From IMG/VR virus record IMGVR_UViG_2711768052_000011: a stretch of 47,248 bases of DNA; one strand, written 5' to 3'. The notes beneath the pieces were generated by a model. The model was not told the origin of the DNA. It made no database searches and worked only from the letters and a program-made list of their open reading frames with translations. Of the stretch, positions 1,285-37,583 are shown piece after piece. A program made the position numbers and the translations under genes. Source of the stretch: a virus (taxonomy: Duplodnaviria; Heunggongvirae; Uroviricota; Caudoviricetes). The first letter of the stretch is position 1. Each line of letters starts with the position of its first letter.

Positions 1285-1601
1285 AATTCATAGATGTTTT
1301 TTACCATCCTGTGGATTTTTTGACGTTTTCTAAGTTTTTTCAGGTAGTTGTATTTTTTCTAAAAACCCATGATCTCGATTTTGCTGTTTATCTGAGGCCT
1401 TTTTATGTCCCATATATGCCCCAAAGGTGCTCCATGCAAAATATCTGGCGTAGTCTTCTTTCTTGCCAGTAGTTTTAGAGCTTTCACAATCCAGTCTCCT
1501 CCGCTAAAATTGATCACGGAAGACCTTCATATTAGAACTTGCTATACTCAAAAGCTAAAAGCCAGACTGTTGACGCAGCCGGGCTTTCATTTTTCAGATA
1601 C

Positions 1602-1622
1602 AAAAAAACCGCTCATGGCGGC
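1602..1622 (-). terminator. weak intrinsic terminator downstream of tfa
   Basis: On minus strand a short GC hairpin (CCGC/GCGG) followed by T7 run, immediately after tfa stop; stem only 4 bp. Confidence 0.3.
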
Positions 1623-1629
1623 TTATTCA

Positions 1630-2202
1630 TTACTCAACGTCAAGCGCTCGAATTGAAACCAAATCATCCAGGCCGCTCAACCTCTCTTTCATCTCCCGCT
1701 GGCGACGATAAATTTCGTCGTTGCGATCGACCTGCGCCTGCGCCATTGCTGCAGCCAGTTCTTCCAGTTCCGGCATCGACAGTTTCACCTGTTGATTATC
1801 GGCGTCACCCCACGTCAGAGCGGTTCGTGCTGTATCGAATTTCGCAGCCATTACCACCGGATAAAGACGGGCCAGCGAATCAGGGCCAGCATTCCAGGTG
1901 TGGTCGTTCCATTCGAACGTGAACGGCTTCGCCTCCTGCTCTGTACGCCACGCTTCGATTTCCCGCTTTTTGGCATCTTTCGCTACGGTGATAAGTTCAG
2001 GTGTTATGGTGAACGGGGCGATTTCACCCCATTTGCCACTCTGCAGTTCCTCCCAGATTTGCTGGCCTGTCGTTTCAGTGTCTTCTTGTGTGGCTGTATA
2101 GGGAATGGGAGCCTCCATCCCTTCAAATAAAACCTCACAGTCAATTGCGCCACTTTCAAGATAGCGGGCATTTCCTATTTTTTTTATTTCCATAAAATTC
2201 AC
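1630..2202 (-). CDS. tfa: tail fibre assembly protein (Tfa chaperone)
   Basis: 190-aa ORF directly downstream of and abutting tail-fibre gene; size and position typical of Tfa family. Confidence 0.8.
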   Translation of the reverse strand: MNFMEIKKIGNARYLESGAIDCEVLFEGMEAPIPYTATQEDTETTGQQIWEELQSGKWGEIAPFTITPELITVAKDAKKREIEAWRTEQEAKPFTFEWNDHTWNAGPDSLARLYPVVMAAKFDTARTALTWGDADNQQVKLSMPELEELAAAMAQAQVDRNDEIYRRQREMKERLSGLDDLVSIRALDVE

Positions 2203-3975
2203 CTAATAAACCCGGATAAATAGACCAATCATGATGCCATCAGAACCCACACTCCCCAGCCGTGAGCCCGACAACGCCCGGTATGTCCCCGAAAACGCAC
2301 CGCCTGCATACACAGAAATATCGCTGGTTTGTTGAATCGCGGGGTAGTCTGTTATCCCGACACACTTAAACTCAATAATCATAAGACGTGAGCCGGGATA
2401 CAGGTCACCACGATTTATCTGACGATTTGAATCTGAGCTGTAAGTTCCCTTGTACCCCGCCAGTACAAGACTGCCAATACCGTATCCGTCATATGTCGTT
2501 CCGGGGGTAATCCCGGACAGCGTAGCGACAACGGACGACGGCGTGTATTTCAGGGATTCCCACTCCATCAGTTTGCCAGTGGGCGAGTACCAATTCACAT
2601 GAACGCCACCATTAACACCGTAGAAAATAATATTTTTAGGTTGTTTTTCTGCTTCACCACTGGTATCGGCACTCGTCCAGATGACGTCCACAACACCAAT
2701 AAATAGTTCCCCCTCTATTACGACCCCGTTCTCCGGCCTCGTACTCACGGCATAACGTCCGGGGAGAGCGTTTTTTGCCCACGAGAGGAACATTGACCCT
2801 GACTGAAAATACACTCTGTCTTTGACAGTAAATATTTTCCCGAATCCGGACATGCCGGGGACAGCAAGACGACCGTCTGTGCAGTCGTAAATATCTGCCT
2901 GTGGTTCCATCGTGGCCGCGCTTTTTAGCCCCAGATTATCACGTGACTCCTGTTGTGCTTGTTCACCTGCTGCCGCAATCTCTGACAGATTACCGGACGT
3001 TTTCAGGGTGTTCGTCAGCAGGACATCAATGTCGTTTTTTGCCTGCTCAGCTGCGCGGGCATAACCTGCGGCTACCCGTGCGCTCTGTTCAGATGAGGCC
3101 GCGCTTTCCCCCGCACTTTTCACATCTTCCGCAGTGGCCTTTCTGTCACAGGCTGTGGCCGTTGCATCCTGTCTGGCGTTCTCCGCAAAGCGCTCAGCAT
3201 CATCACGTGCTGCTGCGGTTACCATCACATCCTGTGCGGTCTGCAGTGTGTTTCCTGCAACATTATCGGCGTGACTTTTCGCGTTTTGCGCACTTCGGGC
3301 TGCATTATCAGCGTGACTTTTTGCGCTCTGTTCGCTTCGGGCAGCGTTATCCGCATTGTTTTTTGATTCCTCTGCGCTGGATGCAGAATCATCTGCTGCC
3401 TGTTGAGCCTGCTTTACTGCATCTGTAACACTCTGCACACCCTGTTGCATCTGTCCGGCATTCTGCTCAACTTCTGCAGCCAGATGTTCAACGTGTTGTT
3501 TATCTTCGGCAACCGCGGTGGCGTTCAGCTGTACGTTATCCTCCAGCGTCTGACAGTCTTCCTTTATCTTCTGCGCATCAGCGACATGTTGCCCGGCCTG
3601 TTGTTCGCTTTCCGCTGCGGATTCGGCGCTCTGCTGCGCCTGTGCCACCATTCTCTCAAAGCGTTTCACCACGTCGGGTTTGAGGTCGCCTTCATCGGGA
3701 GCGGTCAGAAAGTCGTTCAGCGTGCCGGGCTTTGCGTCATCGTATACAGCAATGTCGCCAACACAGTACTCGTCGCGCCAGCCCTGTTTCAGATACACGC
3801 GATATTTTCCGGTCCGGGCCTCAAACGAATACTCCCCGTTATTTCCGGTCACCACATCAGCTTCAGTGCGCATCACCACTTCTGATGTGTTCACCCGGGA
3901 TTTCAGAATAATGTGGCATCCGGACATGGGGATGCCTGCGCCATCAGTCAGCGCACCATAAATTAAAACGGACAT
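2203..3975 (-). CDS. side tail fibre protein (Stf-like), second fibre
   Basis: 591 aa from internal Met MSVLIYGALTDGAG (ORF-track frame); conserved phage fibre N-terminal domain (GTLNDFL motif), Ala/Gln-rich shaft, distinct C-terminal domain; followed by tfa. Confidence 0.8.
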   Translation of the reverse strand: MSVLIYGALTDGAGIPMSGCHIILKSRVNTSEVVMRTEADVVTGNNGEYSFEARTGKYRVYLKQGWRDEYCVGDIAVYDDAKPGTLNDFLTAPDEGDLKPDVVKRFERMVAQAQQSAESAAESEQQAGQHVADAQKIKEDCQTLEDNVQLNATAVAEDKQHVEHLAAEVEQNAGQMQQGVQSVTDAVKQAQQAADDSASSAEESKNNADNAARSEQSAKSHADNAARSAQNAKSHADNVAGNTLQTAQDVMVTAAARDDAERFAENARQDATATACDRKATAEDVKSAGESAASSEQSARVAAGYARAAEQAKNDIDVLLTNTLKTSGNLSEIAAAGEQAQQESRDNLGLKSAATMEPQADIYDCTDGRLAVPGMSGFGKIFTVKDRVYFQSGSMFLSWAKNALPGRYAVSTRPENGVVIEGELFIGVVDVIWTSADTSGEAEKQPKNIIFYGVNGGVHVNWYSPTGKLMEWESLKYTPSSVVATLSGITPGTTYDGYGIGSLVLAGYKGTYSSDSNRQINRGDLYPGSRLMIIEFKCVGITDYPAIQQTSDISVYAGGAFSGTYRALSGSRLGSVGSDGIMIGLFIRVY

Positions 3976-34033: not shown

Positions 34034-34199
34034 CGGTTGTCTCTGCTGGCGCAGCAGGTGCCAGTTGTTCAGGCTGGCGTGCGAATTGTAAACCAGAATG
34101 CTAGGAAAAAACAAAACCCGCCGAAGCGGGTTAAGTGCGGGTGCGTTGAGGATGCCTGACACATCAGAGGTGGCGAGGGATTCTCCCCCGCCTGGTCTC

Positions 34200-34355
34200 T
34201 TACTCCTCAGGTTCGTAAGCTGTGAAGACAGCGACCTCCGTCTGGCCGGTTCGGATTCGTACCTCGCAGAGGTCTTTCCTCGTTACCAGTGCCGTCACTA
34301 TGACGGTTAAACAGATGACGATCAGGGCGATTAACATCGCCTTTTGCTGCTTCAT
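34200..34355 (-). CDS. hokD: Hok/Gef-family membrane toxin
   Basis: 51-aa product MKQQKAMLIALIVICLTVIVTALVTRKDLCEVRIRTGQTEVAVFTAYEPEE matches E. coli HokD (RelF) by recall; AAGGAG RBS. Confidence 0.85.
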   Translation of the reverse strand: MKQQKAMLIALIVICLTVIVTALVTRKDLCEVRIRTGQTEVAVFTAYEPEE

Positions 34356-34566
34356 AGCCTGCTTCTCCTTGCCTTTCGGCACGTAAGAGGCTAACCTAGA
34401 TTTGCCGTTCATAGATTGAGCCTCAGATTAATGTTAAGCGTCTTGCAGGACGCGTAATGTTAACTGGGGCTTTTCTCTATCTGCCTTTGGTGTTCATGCC
34501 TGAGACAGATAGCCTCAAGCACCCGCAGCCATTCTACTTAACTCCCGTTACCTCGCCAATATAAAA

Positions 34567-34656
34567 TCAATCAGAAAGGCGATCCATAAGAACAACAGCA
34601 AGACAATAAATTGCCATTACAGCTGCAATAGCCAGCGCACATTTGAGAACCAGCAC
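34567..34656 (-). CDS. candidate small hydrophobic peptide (29 aa), possible type I toxin-like
   Basis: AGGAGG, 5-nt spacer, GTG start; product MLVLKCALAIAAVMAIYCLAVVLMDRLSD; hand-derived, not in ORF track. Confidence 0.3.
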   Translation of the reverse strand: MLVLKCALAIAAVMAIYCLAVVLMDRLSD

Positions 34657-34970
34657 GACAACCTCCTGTATTGGACGTACACCAGTCCTGATAAATATGA
34701 GGCTGTCTCATCATTGATGAGATACAACTATTGGGTATAGTTTCTGTGATTTTGTTCTGTAGAAATGGAACACAACAACCAGTCTCCACCAGCACTTCTT
34801 TAAATACGCCAAGTCCGACGCAAGCTAACCTTCTAGTCCGCTTTGAGCGAACTGTGGAAGCTCGCAAATGTTGTTACATCTGATGAAGGCATTACTCAAA
34901 GGAGGGGATAGTAGTCAACGTGGAGCAGGCCATGTTAGTATTTTTATACAATTCGACTAAGGGAAAAACA

Positions 34971-35840
34971 ATGAGGCTTTACATAATAGGAAATGGATTT
35001 GACATGCGTCATGGCTTACCAACAGGATACAAGCACTTTAAGTCGTATGTAGAAAAAAATGACCAAGATCTATATGACGCGATAGAAGAATACATTCCTG
35101 CTGGGGACGAGTGGAATGAGTTAGAAAATGCTTTAGGTGAAATTGATTATGAGCTTATCCTTCAAAACAGTGAGATATTTTTGGCTTCATACAATACCGA
35201 TGATTGGAGCGATGCTTATCATCACGATTACCAATATGAAGTAAATAAAATCACACAAATGCTGTCAGCTCGTTTGAAGGAGCAATTCGCTGATTGGGTT
35301 AAAGGGATTAACATAGCCGATGCTTACAATCCTAAGCAATACATCCCGCCCATACCAAGAGAAAGCATCTATTTTTCATTTAATTATACAAATACCTTGC
35401 AGCAGATCTATGCCGTTCCAGACGAGCAAATCATACATATTCACGGAAATTGTAGTTACGATGACGATCTCATACTTGGTCATAGTTTTAGGGTGGAAAA
35501 GTCACTAAATCCATATATAGGACCGGATCAAGATACAAGAATAGCAGAGGCATACGACAGAATAAACGAATACTTCGGTAATACATTCAAGCCCAGCGAA
35601 GACATAATTAAAGAAGAAAACGTTTTTTTCTCATCGCTTAAAAATGTGGACGAGGTCATCGTTTTAGGCCACTCGCTCGCCGAAGTTGACGGTGAATACT
35701 TTACTGAAATAAATAAAAGCATCCAAGAAAATGCTCGATGGATAGTTGCTTTATATAGAGGTGAGAAAAAATCAGGCAGTTTAGAAGATTATGGTATCAG
35801 AGGCTCAAATATTTCTTACGTACAGTATGAAGATATCTGA
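34971..35840 (+). CDS. AbiH-like abortive-infection protein
   Basis: N-terminus MRLYIIGNGFDMRHGLPTGYKHF matches AbiH-family hallmark; AT-rich; ORF track begins at GTG 34920 with AAGGAGG upstream. Confidence 0.6.
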   Translation: MRLYIIGNGFDMRHGLPTGYKHFKSYVEKNDQDLYDAIEEYIPAGDEWNELENALGEIDYELILQNSEIFLASYNTDDWSDAYHHDYQYEVNKITQMLSARLKEQFADWVKGINIADAYNPKQYIPPIPRESIYFSFNYTNTLQQIYAVPDEQIIHIHGNCSYDDDLILGHSFRVEKSLNPYIGPDQDTRIAEAYDRINEYFGNTFKPSEDIIKEENVFFSSLKNVDEVIVLGHSLAEVDGEYFTEINKSIQENARWIVALYRGEKKSGSLEDYGIRGSNISYVQYEDI

Positions 35841-35923
35841 ATGAGACTTCATATTATAACTATAATTATGTAAAAAAGGCTGGTATTTTATACCTTGAGG
35901 AAAATAGATAAGAGGAATGAGGT

Positions 35924-37321
35924 TTGGTTATGATGAATTATACTGATGAGTCAACTTTTCTTGAAAAGTACAAACCGTTTAGGAAGTTTTGGACAATTTT
36001 ATCACCTCATTATGTATCTTTAATGCATGCACTTGCCAAAATGATAAGGGGAGGGAATCCAATTCAAGAACTACCTTCCAATGATGAGGATTTTCTTGCA
36101 GAGTATGAAACCTGTCTCAAAAATTGGAAAGACTCACAAAAAATCATATCTTTTGAGATTATTATTCGGCTGAGAGATATAAAAAGATTGGAAACTGAAA
36201 AAAAAGAGCACCATCGAAACAAGGATAAAGAAAATAAAGAAAAGTGTATTAATGAAATAAGTTTAAAAAAATTTGAAATTCTTATTCTTCGCCGTTGTAT
36301 TGACTCAATAATTTGGAGCATTCTTGATGAAGAACACTCTAGTTTGCGGCGTTTACCTATTAATGCAAGCAATGACAATCTATCAGAAGATAACATAATT
36401 GATTCTATGGTCGCAGCCGATCTTATCAACCAGGACAAACACTCCGTAGCGATTGTCTCTGACATGAGCACATTTGTTCATGTGGGAGATTTAGTCACCT
36501 TTAATCTACTGGATGGCTTCCAGCTCGTGGAAGTTAAAACAGGTGAAAAGAATAATGAGCTTTATGAAGCTGCTGAATTTTCTGTTATCTCAGAATGTCC
36601 GCACTTTGAAGAAAACTTCATTAACAATATGCCTGATAATGATGTTAAGCAATTTAATCGCATAAAAAGGCAAATCATTCGTGGCATGAATGTTCTGGAG
36701 GCGATTAATACTGGCGAGGGCTTTGACAACTTTCATCAGTCTAAAGTTAAAATCAATGAGATAGATCATCCGTCTGAATTTTATACCCACCGCTTAGTTA
36801 AAATGTGGGAGATTATTCGCGGAGGAAAAAATTGGGCAATTGATACTATTGATGAATGTTTGTTCTTAGGTATGTACCGTGATTCTGAAATGGGCTTTGT
36901 TGCCTTCAATGGATGGATGGATAGTCTCGGTATAAAAAGCCCTGTTGTGAATATAAATGATTCATTCTTTGACCCTTTGTCTCGACCATTTATGAGTTTG
37001 CATCTGCCAACTGAAATGCTCTCCGATCTCATGTCGGGACAAATAATCATCGTCATGTGTTTTGACAATGAACTTTTTTTTCACCGTGCTAACAAAACGT
37101 ACCCGGGTTTATATCTCCTTAGCGATGCAGCAAGAACAAAGCAGCCATTAGAAAATATTCTTCGTGTTGGTTCACAAGGGATAGCTTCTTACGTAGATGG
37201 GAATACCAGCTTTTTAGGTAATGGTATTGAATCCCGTATCCTTTTCGATCAGCAACGACCCGACAACATTATTGAGTGGAGCTATGCTAGAAGCGATCTC
37301 AAAAAGCAACATGAAGCATAA
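35924..37321 (+). CDS. uncharacterised 465-aa partner protein, possible PD-(D/E)xK-like motif
   Basis: Co-oriented 83 nt downstream of AbiH-like gene; TTG/ATG start region with GAGG SD; charged coiled-coil-like stretch; VGDLV ... LVEVK motif. Confidence 0.55.
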   Translation: MVMMNYTDESTFLEKYKPFRKFWTILSPHYVSLMHALAKMIRGGNPIQELPSNDEDFLAEYETCLKNWKDSQKIISFEIIIRLRDIKRLETEKKEHHRNKDKENKEKCINEISLKKFEILILRRCIDSIIWSILDEEHSSLRRLPINASNDNLSEDNIIDSMVAADLINQDKHSVAIVSDMSTFVHVGDLVTFNLLDGFQLVEVKTGEKNNELYEAAEFSVISECPHFEENFINNMPDNDVKQFNRIKRQIIRGMNVLEAINTGEGFDNFHQSKVKINEIDHPSEFYTHRLVKMWEIIRGGKNWAIDTIDECLFLGMYRDSEMGFVAFNGWMDSLGIKSPVVNINDSFFDPLSRPFMSLHLPTEMLSDLMSGQIIIVMCFDNELFFHRANKTYPGLYLLSDAARTKQPLENILRVGSQGIASYVDGNTSFLGNGIESRILFDQQRPDNIIEWSYARSDLKKQHEA

Positions 37322-37583
37322 GCCGTTGGATGGGATTTCCCATGAATTGCCATGGATAATCTAGACACTTCGAGCCGTTGATAATGTTGATTTTCGTATT
37401 CTGTCGGTGGAGTATCCCGAAAGGTATAGAGCAAAACCTGGAGAAAACACACAGCATCCCATTTTAATCTTTAACTCTGACCTTCCATAATGTCCGCTGT
37501 TGGCACAAAGCGGACAACCACGCTAGCTCTACCCTGTGCCACAAAATGTCAATTTGCATCTGAACTAATGCACTTTAATCTCG

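Follow-up and report, generated by a model that had tools for sequence, protein, structure and literature searches.

Small proteins such as MgtS/YneM, AcrZ, KdpF and YnfS have fewer than 50 amino acids, one hydrophobic helix and short charged ends, and their genes have a good ribosome-binding site and are missed by standard gene callers. The toxins TisB, ZorO, DinQ, ShoB, Fst/Ldr and Hok of type I pairs are also short peptides with a hydrophobic helix, and they are located in mobile or conflict regions. In hok loci, a short upstream frame on the same strand, mok, lies inside the hok mRNA, overlaps hok and couples hok translation. Here we describe a 29-codon open reading frame, hereafter the small ORF, in a stretch of 47,248 nucleotides from a virus of the Caudoviricetes (IMG/VR record IMGVR_UViG_2711768052_000011; the whole stretch is referred to as the window). 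The small ORF belongs to the early-rightward (nin) region of a lambdoid prophage of the Rac/Qin type, where the minus-strand gene order is DUF977, small ORF, hokD, a rem-like ORF, DUF968, RusA and antiterminator Q; between the first two of these, the plus strand encodes AbiH and a 465-aa protein. In size, single transmembrane (TM) helix and strong ribosome-binding site, it resembles TisB, ZorO, DinQ and Fst. The comparisons presented below indicate that it is probably a genuine gene for a small membrane protein that is not tied to hok and is no type I toxin of the classical kind.

The 29-codon frame and its conservation

The small ORF occupies minus-strand positions 34567..34656 and comprises 29 codons, beginning with GTG and followed by TGA (34569..34567), that encode the peptide MLVLKCALAIAAVMAIYCLAVVLMDRLSD. 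The Shine-Dalgarno sequence AGGAGG (34667..34662, minus strand) is separated by a spacer of 5 nt (TTGTC) from the GTG at 34656, and the start, length, strand and ribosome-binding site given in the initial annotation agreed exactly with the window sequence. Sites that combine AGGAGG, a spacer of 4-9 nt, an ATG or GTG and an ORF of at least 25 codons occur only eight times in the 47 kb, and the other seven head longer ORFs of 91-853 codons, one of which is the DUF977 gene. The peptide has a strongly hydrophobic stretch of 19 residues at positions 6-24, with a Kyte-Doolittle value of 2.70 and a Hessa scale sum of -2.9 kcal/mol; K5 precedes this stretch, D25, R26 and D29 follow it, and the C-terminal tail, DRLSD, is acidic. 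Both scales bear out the earlier description of a single-TM-like peptide, with one segment predicted to be long enough to span the membrane, as in small inner-membrane proteins; the peptide also has the small, hydrophobic character of type I toxins.

Searches of the peptide against Pfam (E up to 10), NCBIfam, PHROGs and PADLOC returned TM-segment noise only, and BLASTP against the neighbouring HokD gave no alignment at E up to 100. Membership of the Hok/Gef family (PF01848) was rejected on the basis of the Pfam and HokD comparisons, and YnfS, the 29-aa protein of Qin, was rejected as a paralogue due to the dissimilarity of the two sequences. A literature search for the peptide sequence found no paper containing or discussing it, and the peptide is a new, uncharacterised member of the small hydrophobic prophage proteins. 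The small ORF overlaps, in another frame, a 98-aa Cys-rich ORF with a TTG start (34571..34867), which had been considered implausible from the outset. This longer ORF was rejected as coding and is spurious: its frame is without constraint (pN/pS about 0.85) and its N-terminal two-thirds is absent in other contexts.

Conservation of the small ORF was analysed with two IMG/VR scans of at least 120 loci each, one anchored on a degenerate amino-acid pattern and the other on the non-coding upstream sequence, the latter providing a sample selected without reference to the ORF itself. In the upstream-anchored sample, the GTG and the open frame were present in 128 of 128 complete copies among the matches listed, and these encode peptides of 29 aa (124 copies), 35 aa (three copies) and 31 aa (one copy), the 35-aa peptides being the result of an 11-nt deletion across the stop. 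Since all copies are closely related (at least about 78% nucleotide identity, in Escherichia and Shigella only), intactness alone is weak evidence, with a probability of no stop of 0.56 under the null. The 35 distinct ORF sequences among the matches listed had 10, 11 and 21 variable columns at the first, second and third codon positions, respectively (binomial p = 0.019), and their pairwise pN/pS was 0.36 in the frame of the small ORF compared with values of 0.51-0.87 for the remaining five frames. When changes were counted by parsimony on a neighbour-joining tree built from 41 distinct segments, again among the matches listed, there were 39 synonymous and 35 non-synonymous events and no stops, counts that recombination can inflate, while the synonymous excess and the frame specificity remain. 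When the same mutation types were re-placed at random, the average was 20.5 synonymous events, and 39 was reached in 0 of 10,000 randomisations.

In addition, the amino-acid replacements were nearly all conservative (A/V/T, M/V/L/I, D/E/N, R/H and L/F), hydrophobicity and C-terminal charge were retained across the variants, and indels, present in the flanks, were absent from the 90-nt ORF. Conservation of the reading frame in related prophages, which the initial annotation had left to be established, was thus found for both frame and start, together with frame-specific purifying selection on the amino-acid sequence. Judged from these sequence comparisons, the small ORF very probably is a gene that encodes a small membrane peptide.

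Comparison across contexts revealed that the shared sequence extends from about 75 nt 5' of the GTG to about 18 nt beyond the stop. The resulting module of about 150 nt, composed of a -10-like CATATT, the ribosome-binding site and the ORF, behaves as an independent unit that moves between different flanks. The Shine-Dalgarno sequence of other copies reads AGGAGA, GGGAGG, GGGGGT or, in one case, AGAAGA, with unchanged spacing (41 distinct upstream variants among the matches listed). The CATATT hexamer (34694..34699, minus strand), a candidate promoter element, is located 43 nt before the GTG in 41 of 41 distinct upstream variants of the coding-sequence-anchored sample, among the matches listed. 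At the -35 position, 17 nt 5' of CATATT (34717..34722, minus strand), most of the listed copies have TTGAAT, TTGAAG or TTGCTG and the window has TCTCAT. TTGAAT-17-CATATT is a plausible but weak sigma-70 promoter for the small ORF, being a consensus match only (4/6 + 4/6) that is absent from the standard promoter scan list, and with TCTCAT as its -35 the promoter of the window copy is predicted to be weaker. The change from TGAA to CTCA that destroys the -35 in the window variant also generates a perfect 8+1+8 palindrome, TCTCATCAaTGATGAGA (34706..34722, both strands). The palindrome overlaps the -35 position of the small ORF as well as the -35-like TTGATG of a plus-strand promoter-like site (34714-34741) facing AbiH. 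It is limited to the sequence variant of the window (14 of 159 sampled copies, among the matches listed), and could be either an operator or a chance 4-nt change.

The hokD locus and the adjoining hotspot

The hokD coding sequence (34200..34355, minus strand) encodes 51 aa (Pfam HOK_GEF, E 1e-23), and a mok-like in-frame extension of its ORF starts at 34412 on the same strand. The hok mRNA leader (34350..34524, minus strand) matched the full length of Rfam RF01794 with 110 bits and an E value of 2e-25. The match has the same orientation as hok and extends from the 5' tac-like GGGUGCUUGAGG to the AUG of hok, and its position places the 5' end of the hok mRNA at about 34524, downstream of the small ORF. 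The promoter scan detected a hok promoter-like site, TTGGCG-17-TAGAAT (34531..34559, minus strand). From the end of the small ORF it is 8 nt to the hok -35 and 43 nt to the 5' end of the hok mRNA, and the ORF thus lies outside the hok transcript. No terminator-like site was detected in these 43 nt, so that transcripts of the small ORF would probably run on into hok. The hokD locus of the window (34115-34524, minus strand) looks complete, unlike K-12 hokD, with a 5' tac-like GGGTGCTTGAGG (34524..34513), a 3' fbi-like CCTCAACGCACCC (34151..34139), the mok extension, the full Rfam leader and a terminator (34132..34115).

Among the matches listed, the small ORF is followed by hok in 130 copies, by a different sequence in 14 and by an IS-interrupted hok in one; the 14 hok-less copies have unrelated downstream sequence with a convergent DUF1971 gene. 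Conversely, the hokD loci of O157:H7, ST131 and a small plasmid are without the small ORF, and in these loci its last ~25 nt persist, joined to unrelated genes upstream. The remnant in ST131 comprises six codons (MDHLSD and stop) directly after QueH. The retention of these last ~25 nt in ORF-less hokD loci indicates that the two modules overlap over about 34555..34597 (minus strand), a segment that contains the last ~10 codons, the stop and an A/T-rich stretch to the hok -35, and that is kept from about 34597 in ORF-less hok loci and down to about 34555 in hok-less copies of the ORF. As an A/T-rich sequence at about -40 to -70 of the hok promoter, the shared segment may represent promoter-upstream sequence or a recombination boundary.

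On the other side of the small ORF, the AbiH abortive-infection gene (34971..35840, plus strand; Pfam PF14253, E 7e-69; PADLOC AbiH) is divergent from the small ORF and is variable cargo of the hotspot in the window. Directly downstream of AbiH on the same strand, a 465-aa ORF (35924-37321) without Pfam or PADLOC match may be an uncharacterised partner of AbiH, the two genes forming a defence operon. A hypervariable hotspot (34700-37583) separates DUF977 from the small ORF. The nearest upstream genes of the small ORF belong, among the matches listed, to more than 40 unrelated families in both orientations, including AbiH, SIR2 and QueH, and several of these hotspot neighbours resemble anti-phage defence genes, as judged by eye. 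This diversity of upstream neighbours indicates that the small ORF and hok form the conserved right border of the hypervariable hotspot; as a marker of this border, the small ORF is useful for delimiting such defence/moron islands.

Distribution, annotation and the copy on Shigella virulence plasmids

A 256-nt query centred on the small ORF was covered by at least 80% in 1715 of 5426 complete E. coli genomes (~32%). The small ORF is also present in E. albertii and in the temperate phages Tritos, Evi, mEp460_ev081 and HannyBb, while K-12 Qin is without it and has relBE at the equivalent position. In a pattern scan of contigs, all true copies came from records of Escherichia or Shigella or from short contigs of metagenome bins that bear other names and are presumed to be E. 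coli prophage DNA; the remaining matches were due to chance. The most divergent chromosomal copy, with 79% nucleotide identity, was observed in E. coli C10 (NZ_CP195940.1; locus L003, positions 1501-3017), where an 11-nt deletion across the stop results in a 35-aa peptide (…FSDWRGRGS) and an ISEsa1 transposase pseudogene is found in place of hok.

The statement in the initial annotation that the ORF is unannotated was correct for RefSeq, since none of 40 sampled records annotates it, and incorrect for GenBank, UniRef and one RefSeq-style MULTISPECIES entry, which list 29-aa proteins. GenBank calls the gene in REL606 and BL21(DE3) (ACT39199.1 and ACT43394.1; variant MLVLKCTLAIVAVMAIYCLVIVLMDHLSD), one 29-aa variant is named 'MULTISPECIES: hypothetical protein [Enterobacteriaceae]' (650 contigs), and the variant of the pINV virulence plasmids corresponds to UniRef A0A0M1UIT1_ECOLX (542 contigs). 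A search of ~5.8 billion protein clusters with a 40-codon DNA reference, including 11 upstream in-frame codons, gave 33 matches. Those with names were assigned to Escherichia or to multispecies Enterobacteriaceae as hypothetical, membrane or putative membrane proteins without Pfam domains, and gene callers had often given the matches spurious N-terminal extensions. In the HannyBb record (PP925841.1 33919-34208; locus L005, positions 1454-1743), two opposite-strand 'hypothetical protein' genes are annotated across the stretch of the small ORF, which is probably a mis-annotation caused by overlooking the 29-codon gene. Thus, a widespread gene for a predicted small membrane protein is usually omitted by the RefSeq pipeline, and is replaced by wrong-strand annotation in at least one phage record.

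When plasmids were searched with tblastn, an intact homologue of 29 codons, MLVLKGTLAIAAVMTIYCLIVVLMERFSD, was found on 135 pINV plasmids of Shigella/EIEC; none of the records among the matches listed annotates it. The pINV copy shares 79% amino-acid identity and ~78-82% nucleotide identity with the window ORF, and only one of the 16 nucleotide differences between the two ORFs is at codon position 2; conservation of the pINV ORF (82%) exceeds that of its flanks (78-79%) by a small margin only. On pCP301 (AF386526.1 219920-220009; locus L179, positions 3001-3090), the copy is located ~290 nt upstream of icsP on the same strand, and has an ATG start, unchanged AGGAGG-TTGTC spacing and TTGAGT-17-CATATT upstream. 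It is followed by a hok-type promoter and only ~65 nt of decayed hok leader.

On the M90T plasmid (CP037924), the small ORF corresponds to complement(90908..90997). According to the dRNA-seq data of S. flexneri M90T, the start sites near this copy are 90709 and 90726, both for icsP, and 91318, the last one belonging to a 'novel' co-directional transcript that begins 321 nt upstream of the ORF ATG (PMC7132871 Table S3). The same table has no start site at the predicted promoter of the small ORF (~91027) or at the hok-type promoter (~90861), and no plus-strand start site from 90219 to 91397. Under the conditions of that experiment, no activity of the promoter of the small ORF itself is detectable, and the ORF has no antisense transcript. 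The small ORF is not mentioned in the part of the icsP literature covered here. The intact copy, part of a prophage fragment, lies within the intensively studied upstream regulatory region of icsP in Shigella, and because an expressible ORF is located inside this region, icsP reporter constructs may also carry a putative membrane peptide.

Candidate role, alternatives and related systems

The small ORF probably represents an autonomous gene of Rac/Qin-type lambdoid prophages that encodes a 29-residue single-pass inner-membrane peptide. It would be transcribed rightward as part of the early (nin-region) operon, whose genes hok, DUF968, RusA and Q share its strand, and possibly also from its own weak sigma-70 promoter, TTGAAT-17-CATATT, with a -35 that is degraded to TCTCAT in the window. 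The peptide is predicted to insert into the inner membrane, where the distribution of charges, following the positive-inside rule, suggests an N-in/C-out orientation. It would act in the membrane as an accessory (moron-type) factor, and in conflicts between phage and host or between phages it could modulate a membrane protein or the integrity of the membrane. If the peptide is toxic or modulatory, it would constitute a new small effector.

It is improbable that the small ORF is not a gene, that is, that conservation acts on the DNA as hok promoter-upstream sequence, divergent cargo promoters or mosaic boundary, and that the frame is incidental. Such a situation would be compatible with the coincidence of the module ends with mosaic junctions, with the close identity of the copies, among which an open 29-codon frame could persist by chance, with a pINV ORF barely better conserved than its flanks, and with the lack of a start site at the predicted Shigella promoter (PMC7132871 Table S3). 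However, the excess of synonymous events over every randomisation, the third-position bias combined with the lowest pN/pS of the six frames, the avoidance of codon position 2 in the pINV comparison, the invariant start codon with a consensus ribosome-binding site at fixed spacing in nearly all listed copies, and the restriction of indels to the flanks all argue for selection on a translated sequence. Constraint on the peptide itself, expressed in the conservative replacements and in the retention of hydrophobicity and C-terminal charge, also makes it highly unlikely that the act of translation alone matters, for example by barring Rho termination before hok and the nin genes, with a peptide that has no role. 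A strong ribosome-binding site within an otherwise untranslated gap of ~450 nt in a long operon is consistent with that function, but the module persists where the downstream operon has been replaced. The constraint on the amino-acid sequence is, furthermore, unneeded for a purely cis-acting leader of hok. The initial annotation had raised this latter reading, in which translation of the small ORF as a leader or upstream ORF regulates hok expression, and it is very improbable. The short distance to the hok -35 with no terminator-like site between, the presence of hok after ~90% of the sampled copies (among the matches listed) and the retention of the last ~25 nt in ORF-less hok loci fit such a role. 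Nevertheless, the ORF is located outside the hok mRNA, which begins at the 5' tac-like end at ~34524, whereas a mok-like leader would lie inside this mRNA and overlap or be coupled to hok; prophages and pINV have copies of the ORF that are not accompanied by hok, and hokD occurs without the ORF in O157:H7, ST131 and the small plasmid. The retained 3' remnant, given its A/T-richness and its position relative to the hok promoter, is better explained by the promoter-upstream sequence or recombination boundary proposed above. With a module that is independent, in places without hok and wholly upstream of the hok promoter, the leader idea is unsupported. The small ORF is not part of hok/mok/sok regulation, and it is next to hok because of common ancestry at the right edge of the hotspot.

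The small ORF could also encode the toxin of a new type I pair, a membrane peptide that kills or arrests the cell unless an antisense or trans-acting sRNA blocks its translation, and this we regard as unlikely. Besides the size, single TM helix and ribosome-binding site shared with TisB, ZorO, DinQ and Fst, the ORF adjoins another type I toxin (hok) in a prophage conflict hotspot, a plus-strand promoter-like TTAACT-18-TAAAAT (34538..34567) would fire antisense into the ORF in the window, and the RNAalifold consensus pairs the ribosome-binding site with the 3' end of the ORF. The antisense site, a candidate for the plus-strand sRNA promoter that the initial annotation had proposed to look for, is not conserved across contexts, however: many hok-linked copies have TGAAAT in place of its -10, and the -35 is located within the hok promoter and is missing from non-hok copies. 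No conserved antisense promoter or terminator was found across the contexts of the small ORF, the hok leader is the only Rfam match at the locus, and M90T dRNA-seq shows no transcription start on the plus strand from 90219 to 91397, around the pINV copy (PMC7132871 Table S3). The promoter comparison, Rfam and the pINV dRNA-seq data thus gave no antisense or complementary sRNA encoded at the locus. A structured mRNA hiding the ribosome-binding site was not found either, as the putative mRNA is not unusually structured (MFE z = -0.61 compared with shuffled sequences), the six-sequence alifold consensus has a covariation term of -0.97 with compensatory pairs in 1 of 33, and the 5' untranslated region would be only ~33 nt long if the predicted promoter is used. 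Moreover, the pINV ORF persists with an ATG start, a perfect ribosome-binding site and no visible antitoxin, and the peptide is without similarity to Hok and without match to a Pfam, NCBIfam or PADLOC family. Quite unlikely, too, is an unrecognised membrane-active effector, either a type I-like toxin with its RNA antitoxin elsewhere or a partner or antagonist of Hok, that serves as hotspot anchor and has been co-opted in the icsP region.

The reading as an autonomous gene for a small membrane protein can be set against the systems described at the beginning. With TisB, ZorO, DinQ, ShoB, Fst/Ldr and Hok, the small ORF shares the length of the peptide, the hydrophobic helix and the location in a mobile or conflict region, but neither an antitoxin RNA nor a long structured 5' untranslated region was found at its locus, and the peptide has no similarity to Hok. 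With mok, it has in common that it is a short upstream frame in a hok locus on the same strand, but mok belongs to the hok mRNA and is tied to hok translation, whereas the small ORF is placed upstream of the hok promoter and occurs without hok. Unlike the MgtS/AcrZ/KdpF class, the small ORF has no match in NCBIfam or Pfam, but it shares with MgtS/YneM, AcrZ, KdpF and YnfS the length below 50 aa, the single hydrophobic helix, the short charged ends, the good ribosome-binding site and the omission by standard gene callers. Dissimilar in sequence from YnfS, it nevertheless has the same length of 29 aa and belongs to the same type of prophage.
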